Shown piece by piece: positions 1 to 29,081 of a stretch of 64,000 nucleotides of DNA. Both the position numbers and the translations under genes were made by a program. The notes below the pieces were generated by a model. It saw only the letters and a program-made list of their open reading frames with translations. It did no database searches and was not told the origin of the DNA. How positions within the stretch are numbered: the first letter of the stretch is position 1; each line of letters opens with the position of its first letter. The stretch is from the NCBI GenBank assembly GCA_038256975.1, contig JBBSJU010000002.1, forward strand, positions 65,064 to 129,063, given 5' to 3'. This stretch comes from Minisyncoccia bacterium (GTDB taxonomy: Bacteria; Patescibacteriota; Minisyncoccia; Phycocordibacterales; UBA5272).

Positions 1-896
1 CAAAAGTTGCCACGAGCGAATCGCTTGCAGCTAAAATTGCTGAATCAAAAGATGAGCAAAAAGTTGAACGGCAAACAAAAGTAAAAATTGATGAGGAGGG
101 AGTTGATTTTCAATCTGTAATTGATGGTTCGTGGCACCGTTTTACTCCTGAGCGAAGTATGCAAATCCAGCATGCACTCGGCGCAGACATATTTTTTGCA
201 TTTGATGAATGCACATCACCCCTTGCGCCTCATGAATATCAAAAGAAAGCAATTGATCGTACCCATAGATGGGCCAAAAGAAGTCTCGATGAGCATCAAA
301 AACTAGGTGCGTCGCATTCAACAGGATTACAGCAAGCACTTTTTGGGGTCGTGCAAGGTGGTTCGTATGAAGATCTTCGTCGTGAATCTGCACGTACACT
401 TGGAGCTATGGATTTCGACGGTTTTGGAATAGGAGGATCATTTACGAAAGACGATATTGGTACTGCAGTGCGCTGGGTGTGCGAGGAACTCCCAGAAGGG
501 AAGCCACGACACTTACTTGGCATTGGTGAACCAATAGATTTTTTTTACGGTATAGAAAATGGTATTGATACTTTTGACTGCGTGTCTCCAACTCGTGTTG
601 CTCGTAATGGTGCGGCATATACATTTGATGGGCGTATAAATCTAAAAAACAAAGAGTACGTAGAGGACATATCTTCAATTGAACCTGAGCTTACAAACTA
701 CACTTCAACATTTACTCGAAGTTATATCGCGCACCTATTGCGTTCAAACGAAATACTTGCCGCGACACTTATTTCAATACACAATCTGCATTTTGTAGTT
801 ACTCTGGTGGCAAAGATTCGGCAGAGTATTTTAGATGGTACTTACACAGAATTCAAAGAGCAATTCCTCAAGCGGTACTATAAGAAAGTTGATTAA
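1..896 (+). CDS. tgt: queuine tRNA-ribosyltransferase (tRNA-guanine transglycosylase), 5'-truncated by the window edge
   Basis: The translation aligns with the Tgt C-terminal half: LLGIGEPID...GIDTFDCVSPTR catalytic region and RSYIAHLLRSNEILAATLISIHNLHF tail. The frame is open from the window start. The usual CxCxxC zinc motif appears replaced (ELTNYTSTFT). Confidence 0.8.
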   Translation, partial: KVATSESLAAKIAESKDEQKVERQTKVKIDEEGVDFQSVIDGSWHRFTPERSMQIQHALGADIFFAFDECTSPLAPHEYQKKAIDRTHRWAKRSLDEHQKLGASHSTGLQQALFGVVQGGSYEDLRRESARTLGAMDFDGFGIGGSFTKDDIGTAVRWVCEELPEGKPRHLLGIGEPIDFFYGIENGIDTFDCVSPTRVARNGAAYTFDGRINLKNKEYVEDISSIEPELTNYTSTFTRSYIAHLLRSNEILAATLISIHNLHFVVTLVAKIRQSILDGTYTEFKEQFLKRYYKKVD

Positions 897-933
897 GCTT
901 GAATTTTGTGTTATTGTAATAATCTCATAACAG

Positions 934-3840: not shown

Positions 3841-3973
3841 ATGGGTATACTAGCATAGACTTGTTTTAAAATTTATCTAAAAATACAAATAAAAAAACCT
3901 CATAACGCTGCGTTACGGGTTGCTTTTTGCTCGAACTTTTCGAGCGGTATGTTGGATTCTTTAATCAGTAGGT

Positions 3974-4007
3974 GATCGGCGGCCGGATGATCATCCGGCC
4001 GCCGATC
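3974..4007. terminator. perfect 34-bp GC-rich palindrome (GATCGGCGGCCGGATGATCATCCGGCCGCCGATC) at the 3' side of the GC-rich islet gene
   Basis: Read directly in the sequence. It lies 45 nt downstream of the minus-strand stop at 4052, at the compositional boundary. Confidence 0.5.
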
Positions 4008-4051
4008 AATTGCGAGCTACTTACCATTACTGGTTTTCACCCGCAGTTGCT

Positions 4052-4624
4052 TCAGGACATGCCCTTGGTGGGGATCGGCACGATGCCGACGATGGAGCGG
4101 TTGACCTGCTTGAGCTCGCCGGAGGCCAGGCGCTGGTCGAGGTCGTTGTTCACGGCCAGGAGGAGCTTGGTCTCGTAGGCGAGGCCGCTCGTCTTGTAGT
4201 CGTCGAACGTGACCAGACCGGTCTTCAGAGCGTACGCGTCGATGTCGCCGATGCCGAGCATTGCAGCCTTGTCGGTCACACTGACCACCTCGGTCTCGGC
4301 CAGGCGTTCCGGCGTCGTGACCTTGTGCTTCAGCGCGACTGCCTTCAGCGTGTTGTACTCGGCCTGGTAGCGGACGAGGACCGTCTTGGCGGACGGACCG
4401 AAGAACGTCGCCAGATCGGTGATCGCCTTGATTTCGTCGTTCACCGCGATGGCGACGTTGCTGTCGAGCTTGCCGAAGAGGTTGATGTCCGTGTTCTGGT
4501 TGAAGGTCGTCGCAATCTGCTCGCCACTCACCGTATCGACGGCGACAGCGGCGTTGGCAGCGGTGCCTGCGACAGCCAGCGAGATGGCCATGGCAAGAAC
4601 GATCGTACGGGTGTTCGTCTTCAT
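4052..4624 (-). CDS. secreted protein of unknown function (signal peptide) encoded in the GC-rich islet
   Basis: 190 aa. N-terminus MKTNTRTIVLAMAISLAVAGTAANAAV fits a Sec signal peptide. Codon usage is high-GC, unlike the neighbouring genes. Confidence 0.55.
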   Translation of the reverse strand: MKTNTRTIVLAMAISLAVAGTAANAAVAVDTVSGEQIATTFNQNTDINLFGKLDSNVAIAVNDEIKAITDLATFFGPSAKTVLVRYQAEYNTLKAVALKHKVTTPERLAETEVVSVTDKAAMLGIGDIDAYALKTGLVTFDDYKTSGLAYETKLLLAVNNDLDQRLASGELKQVNRSIVGIVPIPTKGMS

Positions 4625-4887
4625 CGGGTATTTCTCCGTTTTGGGTTGGTTGGTGGCGCCAGCATCGCAATCGACTGTGTCGGTTTAGCGAGTAGCAGGG
4701 TAGGTACCTTAAAAAGATACGCACTCTGCTACTCGCTACTGCCTAATTGATTAAGTGAAAGAGCTAAAAATAAAAACGAGCTCACTTGAGCTGTTGAACA
4801 ATATAGCAGGGTACTAAGTTTTTGTCAAACATTTTATGGACAATCCAAAAATCCGTTGTATTTCAAGGATTAATTAGTAAGAATACC

Positions 4888-6454: not shown

Positions 6455-7033
6455 TTAACCAACCTGTCTGACCCAATCTCTGGTAATGCTTTCAATTCGC
6501 TCTTGCTCTAATTCAGGTAAGACGTTCGTATGCATGATGATGTTTCTTGAGAGCTCAAGATCATTAAATCTAGAGTTGACCCACGCTTGATCTGGGAAAA
6601 GATCAGAGAAATCTTCCCAGTTTCCAATTATTATCTGAGCCAGATTTCCGAACATAGTATAATAAATTAAAGATGAAGATGAAGACCTTTGCGTGTGGTA
6701 TTTATTTTTTGCTTCCTTTTCTTTTAAACCACTAGCTGCCTTTTTAACTCTTTCAGGAACACATAAATCCCACCAACCTAAACCTTGCCGCTCTGCTAGC
6801 CGAGTAGATATCAGTTCTCTGGCAGAGTTTTCCAAGCAGAAAAAGGCCACATATACTGACGCCATCTTTTCAGCATCATGGACCAGAACTGGATTAAAGT
6901 CATTTTCTTCAATTCTGGCTAACGGGCTAACATCAACATGTAAACCGATTCCCGTGTTTTCCAGCTTTTTCAACTCGTCTTGTGCTAGAAAACCATCGAA
7001 GACTAACCTTTTAAGGTGGCTTATTTTTTTCAT
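6455..7033 (-). CDS. HEPN-motif protein (R-x4-H near C-terminus); putative RNase toxin/abortive-infection effector
   Basis: 192 aa. The C-terminal helix carries LSRNIIMHTNV (R-x4-H), the HEPN catalytic signature. The start codon shares a nucleotide with the stop of the upstream partner at 7033. Confidence 0.5.
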   Translation of the reverse strand: MKKISHLKRLVFDGFLAQDELKKLENTGIGLHVDVSPLARIEENDFNPVLVHDAEKMASVYVAFFCLENSARELISTRLAERQGLGWWDLCVPERVKKAASGLKEKEAKNKYHTQRSSSSSLIYYTMFGNLAQIIIGNWEDFSDLFPDQAWVNSRFNDLELSRNIIMHTNVLPELEQERIESITRDWVRQVG

Positions 7034-7644
7034 TATTCCAATAAGTTATCTCTAATGCTTTTGAAGATAGAATTATAAACACTCACGTCCGTGGTAGCGG
7101 GTAAGTGAATCTGAATGTTGTAATGAAACTCTGCAGGAAGTCCAGAAACAACGAGTGGTTTTTCTTTTCGAATCCCTTCCTCGCTTTCTTTAAAGTCAGT
7201 TTTAATTTCTTTTGGTTGAGGAGAGTCACCAAATTTAGATAATCCAACAAGTGCTTTGAATGTATTGTAATACCGTCCAACAGTCGCCTCATCCTTACCT
7301 GTAATTCGAGAAAATGCCCCCTTTATCTCAACCTCTGATGCCTTATGGATTTCTTGGTCTGTTGCAAATAAATCTTTATATAAATCAATGACTCTTTCGC
7401 CCATTACGTATTGATGTTGAGAGGCATCTTTTAGCCGATCATACGAATCAGTGGGAGTTGCAGCTTCTGTTAGAAAACCTAGTTTCTTTAAAAGAGGAAT
7501 TATGGCTCTATCATTGGAACTACCAAACCCCATTTGCTTAAGAAACTCATTTGTATACTTTATTGGCCTAGCGGCAGCTTTTGCTTTCTGAAAAAAAGCA
7601 GGAAGTCTGTTATTGGAAATAACGTATGGATATGTGTCAGTCAT
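7033..7644 (-). CDS. partner of the HEPN-motif protein (hypothetical; possible antitoxin/sensor)
   Basis: 203-aa ORF that overlaps the downstream HEPN gene by one nucleotide. No known domain recognised. Confidence 0.45.
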   Translation of the reverse strand: MTDTYPYVISNNRLPAFFQKAKAAARPIKYTNEFLKQMGFGSSNDRAIIPLLKKLGFLTEAATPTDSYDRLKDASQHQYVMGERVIDLYKDLFATDQEIHKASEVEIKGAFSRITGKDEATVGRYYNTFKALVGLSKFGDSPQPKEIKTDFKESEEGIRKEKPLVVSGLPAEFHYNIQIHLPATTDVSVYNSIFKSIRDNLLE

Positions 7645-10468: not shown

Positions 10469-10858
10469 ATGGAAAACCGAAGTTCACAAATTTGGATAGT
10501 ACTCATCGTTATCGCAATTATTGCAGGTGGTGCTTATTGGCTTGGAAATTCTCAAAATACCAACGACCAAACTATTGATGTAAAAACAGACATCTCTATT
10601 AAATCTACGACTGCACAGGTCGGTACTTTTTATGATGGCAAAGATGGTTACTCGCTTTCTATTCCAAGCGGAAATTCTTCAACATGTGTCTGGACGTATA
10701 CTGGAGGAAACGCAGCTATTCCATATTCAGAAACAACATATGCAAGAAGTGCGACTGAAAAACACACTATCTACTCTTATGATTACTACGATTGGAAAGT
10801 TTCTTGTGTAGACGATTTTGGAAATCAGTACACAGGTATATTCCCAAAGATCGAATAA
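10469..10858 (+). CDS. hypothetical secreted/membrane-anchored protein (within att-bounded islet)
   Basis: 129 aa with an N-terminal TM/signal helix (IWIVLIVIAIIAGGAYWLG). Thr/Tyr-rich. Confidence 0.4.
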   Translation: MENRSSQIWIVLIVIAIIAGGAYWLGNSQNTNDQTIDVKTDISIKSTTAQVGTFYDGKDGYSLSIPSGNSSTCVWTYTGGNAAIPYSETTYARSATEKHTIYSYDYYDWKVSCVDDFGNQYTGIFPKIE

Positions 10859-10866
10859 ATTATTTT

Positions 10867-11484
10867 ATGGAAAATAATACAGATGAAATAATCAATTTAA
10901 GCATTGAACAGTTTCAAGAATTTCACGAGAAATTAGGCTCAGAGAATTTCCAGCTCCAGTCTCGAATATTTGAAGATTACGGAAAAAAGAAATTGGATAT
11001 CTATTTTAAATCTATTGGGTTTACCACTGTCGTTATTGGTACAGCAGGACTTATTGCAGGATTCGGATTTACAGCAATCAGTCAAATTCAAAGCGAACTT
11101 CTCTTTTTTGTAGGAGAGGCCCTACTACTGAGTTCTATTTTCTATGGTCTATTCTGGATTCAAAACATATACCAAGGTGAATTTAGATCAATTGAGGAAG
11201 AAATAAAAAGACTCAGGGAGTTTTATGACAAAAGAAATGAAAAGTATATGGTTCTTTACAACGAGTGGATGTCGAAGAAAAGCATCACTAAAAACAATCT
11301 TAAGCAGCTTCAAGAGTTTGAAAACAAATCAATTGATTTGTTTAAGACTCCAACACAGGTTTCTGTTCCAGTCATTTACTCTCCCGTCATGTACGGTCTG
11401 ATGACGTTCGGTGCCGCGGCTCTCTTAGGTTCGTTCTTTATCTACAGTCTGTTATTCAACATTTGTCATCTCTTCTTTCTTTAA
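10867..11484 (+). CDS. hypothetical membrane protein (within att-bounded islet)
   Basis: ORF 10792..11484. ATG 10867 was chosen to avoid overlap. Two to three TM segments, with a coiled stretch between them. Confidence 0.4.
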   Translation: MENNTDEIINLSIEQFQEFHEKLGSENFQLQSRIFEDYGKKKLDIYFKSIGFTTVVIGTAGLIAGFGFTAISQIQSELLFFVGEALLLSSIFYGLFWIQNIYQGEFRSIEEEIKRLREFYDKRNEKYMVLYNEWMSKKSITKNNLKQLQEFENKSIDLFKTPTQVSVPVIYSPVMYGLMTFGAAALLGSFFIYSLLFNICHLFFL

Positions 11485-11746
11485 AGAAAGATATCCCGAC
11501 TCACATGCCTCAGCAAGACACTCCAAAAAGCGCTAGAATATCTTTATAAGGCTTGAGAGCGTGGGTACTGAACTCACATGGCCCGCCAAACCAAAATTCC
11601 ACACTTTCTTTAGGTGTGGAATTTTGTGTTTCAAGCGGTATGACGGCGAGATTCGAAAGCCGGACTGAAGCCACTATATGAGTAAAGCGAATTGTGGCGA
11701 AGGAGGCGGGGTCGCGCAAAATTTGTGAAGCAAATTTATGTGTGAC

Positions 11747-11767
11747 CGAATCTCACATCCTCCGCTC
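11747..11767 (+). repeat. direct repeat of the tRNA 3' end (CGAATCTCACATCCTCCGCTC), att-like, copy 3
   Basis: 21/21 identical to tRNA 10212-10232. It closes a roughly 1.35-kb segment that begins at copy 2. Confidence 0.6.
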
Positions 11768-22280: not shown

Positions 22281-22871
22281 ATGATAATCGTTGGGCTTGG
22301 AAATCCTGGGAAAGAATATGAATCTACACGACATAATGTTGGGCGAATTGTTGCGAGCTATGTTGCCAAACTAACCAAAGCTGATGTTTTCGAAACTGAC
22401 GGCATGCTTCGAGCGCAGAAAACAAAAACAATGATTGCCGATAAAAAAGCAATAATTGTGCTCCCAGATACTTTCATGAATCTTTCCGGGAAAGCAGTTG
22501 GTCCTTTGATTAAGTCGCCTAAAGATTTAACAAAATTAGTTGTTATGTATGATGATCTTGATCTTGCTCGGGGGACCTTCAAGATTTCTTTTAATCGCAG
22601 TTCTGGTGGGCATAACGGAGTTCAGTCGATTATTAAAGCAGTGAAATCCGAGGCCTTTATTCGGGTTCGGGTTGGGATTTCGCCAACAACAACGGGAGGT
22701 AAATTGAAAAAACCACTTGGTGAGGAAAAAGTAGGCAAGTGGATTCTTGGTGTTATGAAAGACGAAGAAAAAGATGGACTGAAAAAACTTTCAAAAACGG
22801 TCCTCCAGGCTCTCGAAATGATTGTTGAAGAAGGTTTACCGAAAGCAATGTCAATATACAATGGGAAGTAA
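22281..22871 (+). CDS. pth: peptidyl-tRNA hydrolase
   Basis: MIIVGLGNPGKEYESTRHNVG N-terminus and the overall Pth fold signature. Confidence 0.85.
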   Translation: MIIVGLGNPGKEYESTRHNVGRIVASYVAKLTKADVFETDGMLRAQKTKTMIADKKAIIVLPDTFMNLSGKAVGPLIKSPKDLTKLVVMYDDLDLARGTFKISFNRSSGGHNGVQSIIKAVKSEAFIRVRVGISPTTTGGKLKKPLGEEKVGKWILGVMKDEEKDGLKKLSKTVLQALEMIVEEGLPKAMSIYNGK

Positions 22872-22891
22872 AAAAGGGGCTATTTCAAAAA

Positions 22892-22977
22892 GAAGGTTTT
22901 AAGAAACACGCATAAAATTCTGGTGAATTTTTGCTACGCTCGCTCCGTCGAGTCTGCGCAAGTTTCTTAAAACCTTC
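22892..22977 (+). repeat. structured repeat element copy 1: 16-bp closing stem around a conserved roughly 54-nt core, 20 nt downstream of the pth stop
   Basis: Stem arms GAAGGTTTTAAGAAAC (22892-22907) and GTTTCTTAAAACCTTC (22962-22977). The core contains the palindrome AAATTCTGGTGAATTT. The core is about 85% identical to the reverse complement of 27572-27626. Confidence 0.6.
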
Positions 22978-22996
22978 TTTTTTCAACTCAAATAAT

Positions 22997-23030
22997 AAAA
23001 CCACCGATTTGGTGGTTTTATTATTTATTT
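22997..23030. terminator. bidirectional terminator between pth and rpsA
   Basis: AAAACCACC gattt GGTGGTTTT, then ATTATTTATTT. Confidence 0.65.
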
Positions 23031-23040
23031 CAGAAAAAGA

Positions 23041-26178: not shown

Positions 26179-26260
26179 GCCGGGGTGGCGAAATTGGTAG
26201 ACGCACTTGCCTTAGGAGCAAGCGAGGTGACTCATGGAGGTTCAAGTCCTCTCCCCGGCA
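26179..26260 (+). tRNA. tRNA-Leu (anticodon TAG), type II
   Basis: GCCGGGGTGGCGAAATTGGTAGACGCACTTGC CTTAGGA GCAAG, long variable arm, GGAGG TTCAAGT CCTCT, CCCCGGC A. Confidence 0.85.
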
Positions 26261-26279
26261 CAAAAAATAAAAAACAAAA

Positions 26280-26305
26280 AAAGAGTGCGCGCACTCTTTT
26301 TTTGT
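26280..26305 (+). terminator. intrinsic terminator after tRNA-Leu
   Basis: AAGAGTGCGCGCACTCTT followed by TTTTTTG. Confidence 0.6.
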
Positions 26306-26336
26306 TTGTGATAAAATCTGTTCAACCCGTACCAAT

Positions 26337-27506
26337 ATGCCACCAACACACGCAAAAAATCCATACGAGAATGCAATCTTTTGGGTTGATGTTGAGAAGA
26401 TTGTTCCAAATCCGTATCAACCTCGGCGTGAGTTTGATGAGCAAGCACTCAAAGAACTATCTGATTCAATTAAACAATATGGGATTTTACAACCACTTGT
26501 TGTTTCGCGTATTGAAAACTGGAATGAAGATGGAAGTTTGAATGTAAGCTACGAGCTTATTGCAGGTGAACGTCGATTGCGAGCATCAAAATTAGCTGGA
26601 CTCACACAGGTTCCTGTACTTATTCGTGTTGGTGATGACTCTCGTGCAAAACTCGAACTTGCTATTCTTGAAAACTTACAACGTGAAGACTTGAATCCTG
26701 TTGATCGCGCCAAGGCATTCGCACAACTTTCATCTGAGTTTAATTTAAAGCACGGTGAGATTGGGCAAAAGATGGGAAAAAGTCGGGAATATGTTTCAAA
26801 TACATTACGACTTCTTACTCTACCGGAAGATGTGTTGAGTGCACTTGCCACAGGAAAGATTTCAGAAGGGCATACTCGGCCGCTCATGATGCTTATCGAT
26901 CGTCCTGAAGAGCAACTCACCTTGTTTAAGGAAATGCTTTTACGAAAGATGACGGTGCGTGAAGCTGAAGGCATTGCACGACGGATTGCGTATGACAAAG
27001 TGCGCAAAAAGGATCGCTTCTTTGATCCAGATATCGCTGAAATTGAAGGCTCACTTGCTGAAACGCTGGGTACTCGAGTACATATTGAAAAGAGGGAAGT
27101 TGGTGGAAAAATCTCAATCGACTTCTTCTCATATGAAGAGTTGCAATCTATTTTAGATCACATCAAAACAGGAGCTCCTGTTTCAAAATCAGGCATGCGC
27201 GAAATGATTGATAGGGTGAATCCAAAAGGTATGATGGCAGCCAGCTCTGTGATTCCTGCGGTTGCTCAAGATGTTGCCCCAGAGCAAACAATTGTTGAAG
27301 CACCTCTCGAACATCCGATGGTTGCCACAAATACAGTTGTAGAAACAACACCTCTTGAAAACGCTTTGCCTGTCGAGCATCCAGTGTATACAGAAAGTCT
27401 TGAGCAAGAAGAGAATCTCATTGATGATAGATCAAAAGAAGAAGTTAAAAAAGAAGAGAACACAGATGATCCTGACCTATATAACATTAATAACTTTGTT
27501 GTTTAG
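26337..27506 (+). CDS. parB: ParB/Spo0J-family partition protein with extended C-terminus
   Basis: ParB box ELIAGERRLRASKLAGL and an HTH region. 389 aa. Confidence 0.75.
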   Translation: MPPTHAKNPYENAIFWVDVEKIVPNPYQPRREFDEQALKELSDSIKQYGILQPLVVSRIENWNEDGSLNVSYELIAGERRLRASKLAGLTQVPVLIRVGDDSRAKLELAILENLQREDLNPVDRAKAFAQLSSEFNLKHGEIGQKMGKSREYVSNTLRLLTLPEDVLSALATGKISEGHTRPLMMLIDRPEEQLTLFKEMLLRKMTVREAEGIARRIAYDKVRKKDRFFDPDIAEIEGSLAETLGTRVHIEKREVGGKISIDFFSYEELQSILDHIKTGAPVSKSGMREMIDRVNPKGMMAASSVIPAVAQDVAPEQTIVEAPLEHPMVATNTVVETTPLENALPVEHPVYTESLEQEENLIDDRSKEEVKKEENTDDPDLYNINNFVV

Positions 27507-27513
27507 ATAAATA

Positions 27514-27546
27514 AAAATACCGCCTCAAGTGCGGTATTTTTATTTA
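27514..27546. terminator. bidirectional terminator between parB and gatB
   Basis: AAAATACCGC ctcaagt GCGGTATTTT, then TATTTAT. Confidence 0.65.
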
Positions 27547-27552
27547 TCCCAT

Positions 27553-27645
27553 ACACACTAGTTTAGAAATGCCTTGCGCAGGCGGGCAGTCGAGCGGAGC
27601 AAAAATTCACCAGAATTTTATGCGTGCATTTCTAAACTAGTGTGT
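27553..27645 (-). repeat. structured repeat element copy 2 (inverted): 19-bp closing stem around the conserved core, 20 nt downstream of the gatB stop
   Basis: Arms ACACACTAGTTTAGAAATG (27553-27571) and CATTTCTAAACTAGTGTGT (27627-27645). The reverse complement of core 27572-27626 matches 22908-22961. Confidence 0.6.
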
Positions 27646-27665
27646 ATTTTGGATGAGAGAGCGTG

Positions 27666-29081
27666 TTATTTACTCAACTCTTCTTTCAACAATTCTTGGA
27701 ATAGCCCCGGATTACCGGATCCCTTAGATGCTTTCATACATTGCCCCACAAAGAACATCAAGATGCTTTCTTTTCCTGACTTAAATTCAGCAACTTGATT
27801 TGGGTTTGACGCAATTGCTTCACGCACAAGAAGCCGGAGAGCCTCAGGGTCATTTTTCTGAATGAGGCCATGCTTTTCTGCGAGTTCTTTTGGAGACATT
27901 TTTTCACCTTGTACAAGCATTGCAAGAATATCTTTCGTACCTCGACTTGAAAGTTCGCCCTTGTCTGTCATAAGGAATAATTCTGTGAGTGCTTCAGCAG
28001 ATGGAAGTCTTGAGCCTTCTTTTTGTAAGAGGCCAGGAATATCCACGGTGAGATAGTTTGCAGCTGTTACGAGCATCTCTTTTTTGTTTGAGATACCGGT
28101 GATTGTGTCAAAAAGAACCCCATATACTTCATCAGAAACCAACTGTTCAGCTGTTTCTGATTTTAATCCCAAAGCTTGCAAGCGTACTCGTTTCTGCTGT
28201 GGAAGTTCTGGAAGTTCTGAGCGGATTTTTGCTACATTAAATTCTGGTACTTGTGAGAGATAGAGTTTAGGTAGATCTGGGTCAGGGAAGTAGCGGTATT
28301 CTTCAGCAGTTTCTTTTTTACGCTGACTGAACGTTGTGTTTGTGCTGTCATCCCAGCCGCGCGTCTCTTTTACAAACGGAACACCATTTTCAATCATTTC
28401 AATTTGTCGTGCTGTTTCGTATTCGATGGCTTTTTCTACTGATCGAAATGAAGCAATATTTTTTACCTCAACATATTTTGAAGCGGGTTTATTTGGATCT
28501 TCCGAAACAGAAATATTTACTTCGATGCGCATCTGGCCTTTTTCAATATTTGCATCTGAGACACCAAGTGTCCGTAAAAGAAGCTGTAGTTCACGTGCGA
28601 AATTTCCGGCCATTTTGGCGTTTTTAATTACTGGCTCTGTTACGAGTTCCATGAGGGGAACACCGGCACGATTGAAATCAACAAGTGAAGAGCCTGTTCC
28701 GTGAGAAGATTTTGCGGTGTCTTCTTCAAGGTGAATACGAGTGAGTTTTACTCCCGCTAGTTCGCCACCAGAGACCAGAGGATATTTATACTGACTAATC
28801 TGGTACCCTTTTGGAATATCTGGGTAAAAATAATTTTTACGATCAAATTCAGTAAAGTCAGGAATGATGCCATTAACAGCAACGCCCACTGTAATAACTT
28901 TCTTAATTGCTTCTTTGTTGGCGACAGGGAGGCTTCCAGGCTGGGCAGTACACACAGGACAAACATTTGTGTTCGGTAGCTCATTATCTGGCTCATTTTT
29001 ACATCCACACCACATTTTTGAGGCGGTTTTGAGTTCGGTATGGACCTCGAGTCCAATGGTTGTGTAATACTCCTTTGACAT
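27666..29081 (-). CDS. gatB: Asp/Glu-tRNA(Asn/Gln) amidotransferase subunit B
   Basis: MSKEYYTTIGLEVHTELKT... GatB N-terminus and the C-terminal YqeY-like domain. Confidence 0.85.
   Translation of the reverse strand: MSKEYYTTIGLEVHTELKTASKMWCGCKNEPDNELPNTNVCPVCTAQPGSLPVANKEAIKKVITVGVAVNGIIPDFTEFDRKNYFYPDIPKGYQISQYKYPLVSGGELAGVKLTRIHLEEDTAKSSHGTGSSLVDFNRAGVPLMELVTEPVIKNAKMAGNFARELQLLLRTLGVSDANIEKGQMRIEVNISVSEDPNKPASKYVEVKNIASFRSVEKAIEYETARQIEMIENGVPFVKETRGWDDSTNTTFSQRKKETAEEYRYFPDPDLPKLYLSQVPEFNVAKIRSELPELPQQKRVRLQALGLKSETAEQLVSDEVYGVLFDTITGISNKKEMLVTAANYLTVDIPGLLQKEGSRLPSAEALTELFLMTDKGELSSRGTKDILAMLVQGEKMSPKELAEKHGLIQKNDPEALRLLVREAIASNPNQVAEFKSGKESILMFFVGQCMKASKGSGNPGLFQELLKEELSK

Follow-up and report, generated by a model that had tools for sequence, protein, structure and literature searches.

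The window analysed here is a stretch of 64,000 nucleotides (nt) from a Minisyncoccia bacterium (assembly GCA_038256975.1, contig JBBSJU010000002.1, positions 65,064 to 129,063). It is an ordinary housekeeping gene stretch of a Paceibacteria-type genome, and the source names on homologues of its genes include Nomurabacteria, Pacebacteria, Taylorbacteria and Harrisonbacteria. Three copies of an intergenic hairpin element are found in it. Copy 1 lies behind pth, in the order pth stop codon, element, bidirectional terminator and convergent S1-domain gene, and copy 2 lies behind gatB, in the order gatB stop codon, element, bidirectional terminator and convergent parB. Copy 3, a divergent member of the same family, is located between an open reading frame (ORF) of 230 amino acids without a Pfam match and a convergent NUDIX gene, and belongs to a subtype with an extended P2 helix. 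The element is a conserved, covarying three-way junction formed by one strand, which is occasionally gained and then long kept in place. A first-pass annotation of copies 1 and 2 had described them as a structured repeat in the same orientation relative to the upstream gene; this orientation is indeed common to both (pth on the plus strand, gatB on the minus strand), and copy 3, absent from that annotation, is placed likewise behind NUDIX.

Copies of the repeat

Aligned in inverted orientation, the cores of copies 1 and 2 have CACGCATAAAATTCTGGTGAATTTTTGCTnCGCTCG in common (37 nt with one difference), followed by about 12 divergent nt and then by CTGCGCAAG, which is identical in both. The reverse complement of the copy 2 core thus aligns with 22908-22961, as the annotation had it. 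In the 64 kb there are exactly two occurrences of the 28-mer ACGCATAAAATTCTGGTGAATTTTTGCT, one on either strand, and none of 100 shuffled sequences contained any match to it, even at three mismatches. Since G+C-containing stretches are included, the similarity is not limited to A/T runs. The arm pairs that enclose the two cores are mutually unrelated in sequence, each being perfectly self-complementary, and have no further occurrence in the window with up to three mismatches allowed. The copy-specific, fully compensated arms reported at first pass are therefore real, with 100% complementarity in both pairs; only their extent had been underestimated, as the 19-nt arms sit inside longer perfect arms of 22 nt. 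Folding energies are about -39 to -42 kcal/mol for both strands, and z against shuffles is about -7 to -8. The exact inverted match of 28 nt, its absence from the shuffles and the perfect arms bear out a structured repeat with a conserved core. The core subtypes differ in P3b (a GACG tetraloop in copy 1 vs a GGGCA pentaloop in copy 2), which indicates that the two copies are not recent duplicates of each other. The coordinates are collected in table 1.

Table 1. Copies of the element in the window, their parts and the adjoining genes and terminators
Feature	Position	Strand	Remarks
Copy 1, complete hairpin element	22887..22982	-, putative folded strand	covariance model 73.9 bits
Copy 1 arms	22887-22907 and 22962-22982		21 nt, 100% complementary, 54 nt apart
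Copy 2, complete hairpin element	27551..27647	+ (antisense to gatB), putative folded strand	covariance model 74.9 bits, E 2e-15
Copy 2 P1 5' arm, ATACACACTAGTTTAGAAATGC	27551..27572	+	22 nt, 100% complementary to 27626-27647
Copy 2 P1 3' arm	27626..27647	+	22 nt; 53 nt separate the arms
Copy 2 P3	27575..27596	+	UGC / GCA internal loop / GGC-GGGCA-GUC hairpin / GA / GCG; from model alignment
Copy 2 P2	27599..27623	+	GCA-AAAAUUC-ACCA-GAAUUUU-(A)-UGC; from folding and model alignment
Copy 3, divergent family member	11648..11754	+	18.4 bits, E 0.018 (full-model scan)
gatB	27666..29081	-	mRNA would carry the complement of the copy 2 folded strand, between stop codon and terminator
pth (peptidyl-tRNA hydrolase)	22281..22871	+	related to copy 1 as gatB is to copy 2
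Terminator-like bidirectional hairpin, parB (+)/gatB (-)	27506..27548	both	18-nt arms, 100%; also in relative L035, which lacks the element
Terminator-like bidirectional palindrome, pth/S1-domain gene	22976..23040	both	kept by relatives that lack the element
Terminator-like hairpin (AAATTCCACAC...GTGTGGAATTT, then TGTGTTTC)	11594..11632	+	about 15 nt upstream of copy 3 on its folded strand

Family and distribution

An exact scan with the 20-mer AAATTCTGGTGAATTTTTGC over one genome per species (185,579 genomes) gave 26 stretches, of which 24, drawn from 19 assemblies, carry the rest of the core. The remaining two (L006 and L010; collected loci are cited by such numbers) are chance matches inside coding sequence. 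All but one of the 24 core-bearing stretches are labelled with a lineage of the Candidate Phyla Radiation (CPR), namely Paceibacterota, Nomurabacteria, Zambryskibacteria, Saccharibacteria or "Patescibacteria group", the exception reading only "bacterium". The same 20-mer gave 20 stretches in metagenomes, about 13 of them real, and no matches in the viral contigs scanned. A covariance model built from 22 copies was searched in 330 kb of collected sequence and identified 41 copies, six of which lack the 20-mer, including copy 3 of the window. The full-model scan of the 64-kb window supported copy 3 and gave no copies beyond the three. The element is about 95-120 nt long and present in few copies per genome, with at most four seen per metagenome-assembled genome (MAG).

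Regarding known RNA families, Rfam 15 matched only four tRNAs in the whole window at the gathering threshold. Permissive Rfam scans of the element returned only microRNA-precursor hairpin models, with 9-22 bits vs gathering thresholds of 72-250, and nothing for copy 3. No description of the element was found in the literature, searched by topic and by the literal core sequence. The family is apparently undescribed and confined to genomes of the ultra-small Patescibacteria (CPR).

Secondary structure and covariation

The copies fold as a three-way junction of P1 (the arms), P2 and P3, a fold predicted for nearly all of them. P1 is mostly 18-35 bp long, almost wholly Watson-Crick and different in sequence in each copy; the longest perfect P1 helices, in L004 and L024, have 33-34 pairs. 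The sequence of the core, given for the folded strand, is 5'-..UUGCG(S)A-[P3b hairpin]-GAGCA-N-AGCA-[7-bp P2b]-A(C/G)CA-[P2b']-A-UGCGUG..-3'. P2 of copy 2 is a hairpin of 10 bp that contains one bulged A and is capped by the loop ACCA, and P3 of this copy has two G·U pairs on the plus strand, which would be A·C on the gatB strand. Copy 3 has a P1 of 8 bp (GAGATTCG/CGAATCTC) and an enlarged P3 in which the GGA/GA internal loop is kept; its P2 is extended (GUCGCGCAAAAUUUG-UGAAG-CAAAUUUAUGUGUGAC) and contains two pairs that are G·U on the plus strand.

In the model-fitted alignment, 96.5% of the cells are canonically paired, and 14 of the 17 pairs have changed on both sides. The covariation score is 0.374 vs 0.113 in shuffles, a value that none of 500 shuffles reach, and pairing falls to 30-50% when the partners are slid by 1-3 columns. 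The P2 helix (helix 3) is paired in 99.7% of its cells, with double changes in seven of ten pairs. Its sequence is invariant in 35 of the 41 copies; in the six divergent ones the stem sequence is wholly replaced and still paired, and the loop is still A(C/G)CA in the replaced stems of L040b (AAUCCGCC/GGCGGGU), L013b (AAUGUUU/GAACAUU), L050b and L003b. Hand segmentation of P3 in 22 copies gave 127 Watson-Crick pairs, eight of wobble type and no other mismatches, with several pair types at five of seven positions and a conserved internal loop. Within one pair of copies, L040a and L040b, arms and junction are identical, and P2b and P3b are completely different yet paired. Compensatory changes therefore go beyond those of the shuffled and shifted controls, as in a conserved structured RNA; what they establish is a fold of one strand, not that the folding molecule is RNA. 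Sequence conservation extends to the junction strands, the GGA/GA internal loop and the P2 loop, implying a constraint that exceeds pairing. There is also a variant in which P3b is replaced by an A/U-rich extended hairpin of about 45 nt (L052, 6245-6349; L054, 239-343; L018, about 2050-2141), junction and P2 being unchanged.

The folded strand

Almost all non-Watson-Crick pairs are of the type that reads G·U on the strand opposite gatB and pth but would be A·C in the mRNAs of these genes. For P2 and P3 together the count is 22 G·U vs 3 A·C in an alignment fitted to the model strand, towards which it leans. The hand segmentation of P3, independent of that fitting, gave 7 vs 1. P1 has 10 vs 5, or about 11 vs 2 once spurious arm alignments of degenerate copies are removed. 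P3 alone has its better fold on the strand opposite gatB and pth in 20 of 22 copies, and copy 3 folds at -43.2 kcal/mol on the plus strand vs -33.8 on the minus strand. In the subfamily with extended P2 (L003, L015, L019, L051 and copy 3 of the window), two G·U pairs are conserved on the folded strand. The loops of the family are rich in purines on this strand and in pyrimidines on the gatB/pth strand.

Judged by the wobble asymmetry, it is the antisense strand of gatB, pth and NUDIX that folds; the observations point to the plus strand for copy 2, the minus strand for copy 1 and the plus strand for copy 3. The proposal that the element acts on the 3' untranslated region (UTR) strand of gatB and pth is thus not sustained, as both wobble pairs and P3 stability favour the opposite one. 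In each copy of the window the folded strand runs the same way as the convergent gene (in copy 1, antisense to pth, it has the direction of the S1-domain gene), but lies behind the terminator of that gene. Copy 2 begins only 3 nt past the terminator hairpin on the plus strand.

Gain at orthologous sites

The spacer between gatB and parB has 159 nt in the window, as compared with 52 nt in L035 (GatB 97% identical), 43 nt in L038 and L028 (96%), 47 nt in L031 (87%) and 30 nt in L033 (84%). The element is absent behind gatB in all five of these relatives, so that the search for it in orthologous gatB 3' UTRs, which the annotation had proposed as a test, was negative throughout. Likewise, the spacer between pth and the S1-domain gene has 169 nt in the window vs 43 nt in L028 and L029, both 96% relatives, which lack the element and conserve the terminator. 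As L035 retains the gatB-parB terminator of the window, the difference between the two spacers consists of the element and short unrelated flanks. Because five gatB and two pth relatives lack it, the element was gained or imported, and is not an ancestral feature of the gatB 3' UTR.

Insertion of a core into a pre-existing palindrome was considered and rejected, since arm sequence is missing from the empty sites. What was gained or lost there is the complete hairpin, as a single unit. Compared with L028, the inserted blocks are flanked by A-rich direct repeats (TAAATAA at gatB, AAGTAA/AAATAA at pth), which are of low complexity and lie 4-18 nt outside the arms; the one at gatB is unsupported by L035. 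There are hints in the aligned sequences that the 3' end of gatB and the spacer may have been exchanged by recombination rather than by simple insertion. The last five gatB codons (27666-27680 vs L035 3337-3351) encode the same peptide, EELSK, with several synonymous differences, and the class of the Ser codon differs (TTG AGT AAA in the window, CTC TCG AAG in L035).

Gene order between copies 1 and 2 is unchanged in relatives without the element. With regard to the age of copy 3, the relatives found through its NUDIX neighbour have another gene order and no copy. In one such relative (L065, NUDIX 82% identical), a gene for a large serine recombinase (Resolvase/Recombinase/Zn_ribbon_recom) at 1-427 and the NUDIX gene are separated by about 2.5 kb, and this region lacks synteny with the window. 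L008 and L050 were also tried as a pair of filled and empty sites, and their flanks could not be aligned.

Persistence, duplication and mosaic copies

Elsewhere in the family, orthologous copies are kept in more than one species: L009/L048 and L053 have theirs between tRNA-Thr(ggt) and tRNA-Thr(cgt), and further orthologous pairs are L008/L050, L020/L022, L003/L051 and L015/L017. The arms of orthologous copies differ by compensated changes. On a single contig, L001 and L025b have in common diverged, compensated arms and 13 nt of 3' flank, indicating that duplication carries the arms along.

Other copies are mosaics. L004 and L024 have an identical centre of 84 nt within unrelated, perfect outer arms of 24-25 bp; the same arm type encloses different core types in L007, L025a and L021; and L040a and L040b combine common arms with different P2b and P3b. 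Such mosaics would be explained by gene conversion among copies over the conserved junction.

Copies also cluster. The three of the window lie within 16 kb, and close pairs, about 40-200 nt apart, are present in L025, L050 and L003. The pair in L025 (6306-6372 on the minus and 6499-6564 on the plus strand) diverges from one shared bidirectional terminator. L050 has family members at 746-813 (minus) and 863-930 (plus), and those of L003 (7365-7436 and 7474-7545, both minus) are in tandem after tRNA-Cys, tRNA-Leu and a terminator, as seen in the orthologue L051.

Genomic context

A terminator is found within 110 nt of the element in 11 of 41 copies on the upstream side of the folded strand and in three of 41 on the downstream side. 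L015, L017 and L045 have a tRNA gene immediately ahead of the element, as read along the folded strand. Outside the window, copies are located between two tRNA-Thr genes, directly behind tRNA-Ile or tRNA-Lys, or upstream of genes, and this variety indicates that the element is not tied to gatB or to 3' UTRs. In L015 (2812-5855) and L017 (4739-7790) a degenerate copy stands directly behind tRNA-Ile(tat), with a tmRNA gene 2.6 kb further on. A T-rich tract at the edge of P1 is present in five of 32 copies on the folded strand and in eight of 32 on the other.

When all ORFs from about 40 loci were compared with one another, no neighbour gene but the housekeeping FtsA and SpoU recurred. Pfam scans of the window ORFs submitted, which took in ORFs of at least 150 amino acids on the window flanks and the genes beside each copy, identified no transposase, integrase, reverse transcriptase, Nop-domain protein or RNase III.

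Comparison with known systems

Dispersed non-coding hairpins are known from bacteria, among them the Rickettsia palindromic elements, repetitive extragenic palindromes (REP) and the REP doublets called REPINs, Correia/NEMIS elements, enterobacterial repetitive intergenic consensus (ERIC) sequences and elements resembling miniature inverted-repeat transposable elements (MITEs). Like them, the CPR element is an intergenic hairpin unit of variable presence and often near terminators; the units of Rickettsia, Correia and ERIC measure about 100-150 nt, and dispersed palindromic elements occur in reduced genomes too. Unlike them, it conserves the junction centre and has copy-specific arms, where palindromic elements conserve the arms and leave the centre free. 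It has a few copies per genome rather than tens to hundreds, no parent insertion sequence (IS) or REP-associated tyrosine transposase (RAYT), no conserved termini, strong covariation in its internal helices and strand-asymmetric wobble pairs.

Of the features expected of a MITE, presence/absence polymorphism at orthologous sites was found (five gatB and two pth relatives), and the A-rich direct repeats described above are questionable candidates for target-site duplications. The arms are unrelated within the window and within the same MAG, so there are no conserved terminal inverted repeats, and no transposase that could belong to a parent transposon is encoded in the scanned window ORFs or recurs in the loci. 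REP and REPIN units have a conserved imperfect palindrome of 20-40 nt, a GTAG or CGTC tag, a high copy number and a RAYT transposase. The CPR element has neither a conserved arm sequence nor a tag (for REP tags, see PMC3733652), and three copies in 64 kb. No RAYT-like (Y1-transposase-like) match was found among the scanned window ORFs or recurrent neighbours.

Orphan structured RNA motifs of the Weinberg/Breaker type, for instance the raiA motif (see PMC2864571, PMC11109978 and PMC10861870), provide a second comparison. The CPR element has the covarying multi-helix structure, conserved unpaired nucleotides and restricted phylogenetic range of such motifs. It differs from them in its unusually long, near-perfect and sequence-free closing stem, in its insertion polymorphism and local clustering, and in that it neither keeps to a particular gene nor has an evident promoter or terminator of its own. 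Long closing stems are known from RNase III stalks, the regular duplexes formed by the flanks of rRNAs and of intervening sequences, which are free in sequence and constrained in length. By analogy, a P1 of about 18-35 bp would fit a two-turn double-stranded RNA substrate; unlike such stalks, P1 is poorer in G·U than typical RNA stems, and the part it brackets is only about 53 nt.

Two further systems resemble the element in part. TIGR-Tas systems, in CPR bacteria and phages, have stem-loop units in tandem arrays next to a Tas gene with a Nop domain; each loop contains box C/D motifs and a pair of variable spacers of 8-12 nt (PMC12045711). Variable but palindromic stems around conserved loop motifs and a CPR host range are common to both, and membership in a TIGR array was nevertheless rejected, since the copies are solitary, the loop is conserved and not spacer-like, and RUGAUGA or CUGA boxes are absent; the window ORFs scanned gave no Nop-domain match. 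Class C group II introns insert after intrinsic terminators. The element is likewise co-oriented just downstream of a terminator hairpin (three of three window copies, 11 of 41 overall), but with about 100 nt it has no intron domains and no reverse transcriptase, and the link to terminators holds only for part of the family.

Several other candidates were tried and discarded. The element itself is no intrinsic terminator, which would be a G+C-rich stem with a U-tract right behind it, as a consensus scan calls nothing at it and separate terminators stand alongside. A T-box or other tRNA-sensing leader, suggested by the UGGU loop and the tRNA-related neighbours, would have a stem I with specifier loop and an antiterminator in a 5' leader, and a UGGN that pairs with the NCCA end of the tRNA. 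It gave no match at E values up to 10; the element lies 3' of genes, the UGGU loop is on the strand disfavoured by the wobble pairs, and in four copies the loop is the complement of AGCA. An integron attC site has conserved R''/R' boxes (RYYYAAC/GTTRRRY) at the base of its stem, extrahelical bases, a variable centre and linkage to cassettes and IntI. The CPR element has stem bases that differ in each copy, no R boxes, a conserved centre and housekeeping neighbours. The arms of copy 1, copy 2 and L004 were compared with viral contigs as possible spacer-like guides, with two null results and chance hits. The 19-mer AAAGAAGGTTTTAAGAAAC of a copy 1 arm occurs in five viral contigs (L059-L063), where the match has no extension and is coding-like (KEGFKK), and is attributed to chance. 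Inspection by eye for hammerhead, twister and kink-turn cores and for dif/lox-like geometry gave nothing that fits across the family, and a loop-loop pairing as in the Alu domain of the signal recognition particle RNA (ACC of the P2 loop with GGU of the P3b loop) fails for the tetraloop subtypes.

Other features of the window

GC skew gave no signal that the inverted copies straddle a replication origin. About 110 nt between the end of the ORF at 10792-11484 and the terminator hairpin upstream of copy 3 (11485-11593) are apparently non-coding, without an Rfam match at E values up to 1. At 3973-4008 there is a perfect, G+C-rich palindrome of 36 nt (TGATCGGCGGCCGGATGA/TCATCCGGCCGCCGATCA) in a genome of roughly 40% G+C. 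It is followed by 740 nt (4010-4750) with long overlapping ORFs on both strands and no Pfam match, in which further long inverted repeats occur at 4404-4459 and 4686-4738; Rfam gave only sub-threshold microRNA hairpin noise here. A HEPN_Swt1-like gene (6455-7033) and a DUF5343 gene (7033-7644), both on the minus strand with overlapping stop and start, look like a small toxin-antitoxin or defence module. A tRNA gene at 26179-26260 is followed by a loopless palindrome of 23+23 nt (26267-26312), presumably its terminator.

Proposed mechanism and alternatives

The explanation that we favour, with middling confidence, is that the element could be an occasionally mobile structured RNA in which a long stem brackets a functional junction. 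A small structured RNA would be made from the strand opposite gatB, transcribed either from a start of its own or because the polymerase reads through the neighbouring terminator or tRNA unit. The near-perfect, sequence-free P1 would be a double-stranded bracket, either for processing of the RNase III type or as a protection stem, through which the junction could be released and work wherever the element lands. The junction itself would be the functional module, binding a protein or a ligand. New copies would be rare, arising by copy-and-insert or by recombinational import, with a preference for gene-free spots beside terminators and tRNA genes. Several observations weigh against this explanation. 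In DNA hairpins, too, G·T wobble is the mismatch that is tolerated best, the larger of the wobble counts has the bias of its fitted alignment, and G·U is rare in P1 (about 1.5%), which DNA-templated correction of palindromes fits equally well or better. Transcription is a further difficulty. The folded strand follows a terminator in all three window copies and would need read-through, and in L009 and L053 it is antisense to the flanking tRNA operon, which is awkward for a passively co-transcribed RNA. A consensus scan found no conserved promoter in either orientation, and there is no U-tract rule behind P1 in either orientation. Finally, no partner protein emerged from the neighbouring genes. 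RNase III processing is pure conjecture, and rnc was not found in the scanned ORFs of this window of only 64 kb.

The main rival, clearly less probable and still to be taken seriously, is a selfish mobile element that folds as single-stranded DNA, with the junction recognised in trans by a transposase, an HUH nuclease or a recombinase encoded elsewhere, and with arms kept perfect by hairpin-templated (quasi-palindrome) repair instead of selection on an RNA. The almost purely Watson-Crick arms would follow, and so would the presence of the element at two sites where close relatives lack it, the distinct core subtypes within one genome and the clustering of copies. Adjacency to terminators and tRNA 3' ends, classic landing sites of mobile DNA, is consistent with it, and as no transcription is needed, neither the lack of a promoter in the consensus scan nor the antisense position in L009 and L053 poses a problem. 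Against it, no transposase, integrase, HUH or reverse-transcriptase gene is present in the scanned window ORFs or recurs in the about 40 loci, and the viral contigs gave no matches. No conserved termini mark the inserted blocks, the sequences beyond the arms are unrelated, and the apparent target duplications (TAAATAA; AARTAA) are short, A-rich and unsupported by L035. Copy number is low, and orthologous copies that persist across species, with the junction conserved and the loops rich in purines, argue for an in-place function. If instead the gene strand were the active one, as the first-pass annotation implied, the element would be a cis-acting 3' UTR structure of the gatB, pth and NUDIX mRNAs, which stabilises the mRNA 3' end or senses tRNA through a UGGU loop complementary to the tRNA 3' ACCA. 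All three window copies lie between stop codon and terminator in the same relative orientation, so this strand is certainly transcribed; it also folds into a very stable hairpin, pth and gatB act on tRNA-linked substrates, and other copies touch tRNA genes. We nonetheless regard such a role as unlikely: on the gene strand the non-canonical pairs become A·C mismatches, P3 is weaker in 20 of 22 copies and the loops are pyrimidine-rich. Moreover, orthologous gatB and pth 3' UTRs do without the element, in roughly 40% of the copies no co-directional gene precedes the element in this orientation, and neither a T-box nor any other Rfam model matches.

Two other explanations are very improbable. The P2 palindrome, AAAATTC-4 nt-GAATTTT or GCATAAAAT-8 nt-ATTTTTGC, has half-sites whose geometry, read from the sequence, resembles operators or dif/lox-type sites, so that the element might be a double-stranded DNA site, either an operator or the core site of a tyrosine recombinase, with inverted copies that could flip a 4.6-kb segment. 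The mutual inversion of copies 1 and 2 and the invariance of P2 in 35 of 41 copies would agree with this, but the six divergent copies replace the P2 stem wholly and keep its pairing, P1 and P3 covary, which a duplex site does not require, and a strand-asymmetric wobble makes no sense in duplex DNA. The unchanged gene order in relatives without the element also speaks against inversion between the copies. Hardly more credible is an elaborate bidirectional terminator or insulator cassette, although all three window copies lie between convergent genes and some copies (copy 1, L050, L052) have an A-tract and a T-tract at the base of P1. Each window copy has a separate canonical terminator beside it, kept in relatives without the element, T-rich tracts at the P1 edge are limited to the minority of copies given above, and a terminator has no need of a conserved junction sequence.

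Implications

To our knowledge, all known bacterial hairpin repeats conserve the arms rather than the loop, and the CPR element is the inverse. There is a modest chance that it represents something categorically new. A bolder view, which we hold to be rather doubtful, is that of a new, CPR-specific small mobile structured nucleic acid, in which the junction of about 53 nt is the active part and travels with a self-generated, perfect duplex specific to each copy. The junction may then be a recognition or catalytic core for its own copying, a new self-cleaving ribozyme or a binding site for a CPR ribonucleoprotein, and the element may settle behind terminators and tRNA genes.

For annotation, the present results caution against reading the hairpin behind gatB and pth as a conserved 3' UTR signal of those genes, which it is not. 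The CPR (Patescibacteria) make up a large share of bacterial diversity, and their non-coding RNAs and small mobile elements are almost unknown. The motif described here is compact and strongly covarying, occurs across several CPR lineages and has clear evidence of recent gain. If the structured RNA is the true explanation, it would be a new class with a built-in, context-independent excision stem; if the element acts at the DNA level, it would reveal an unrecognised mobilisation system in organisms with very small genomes.

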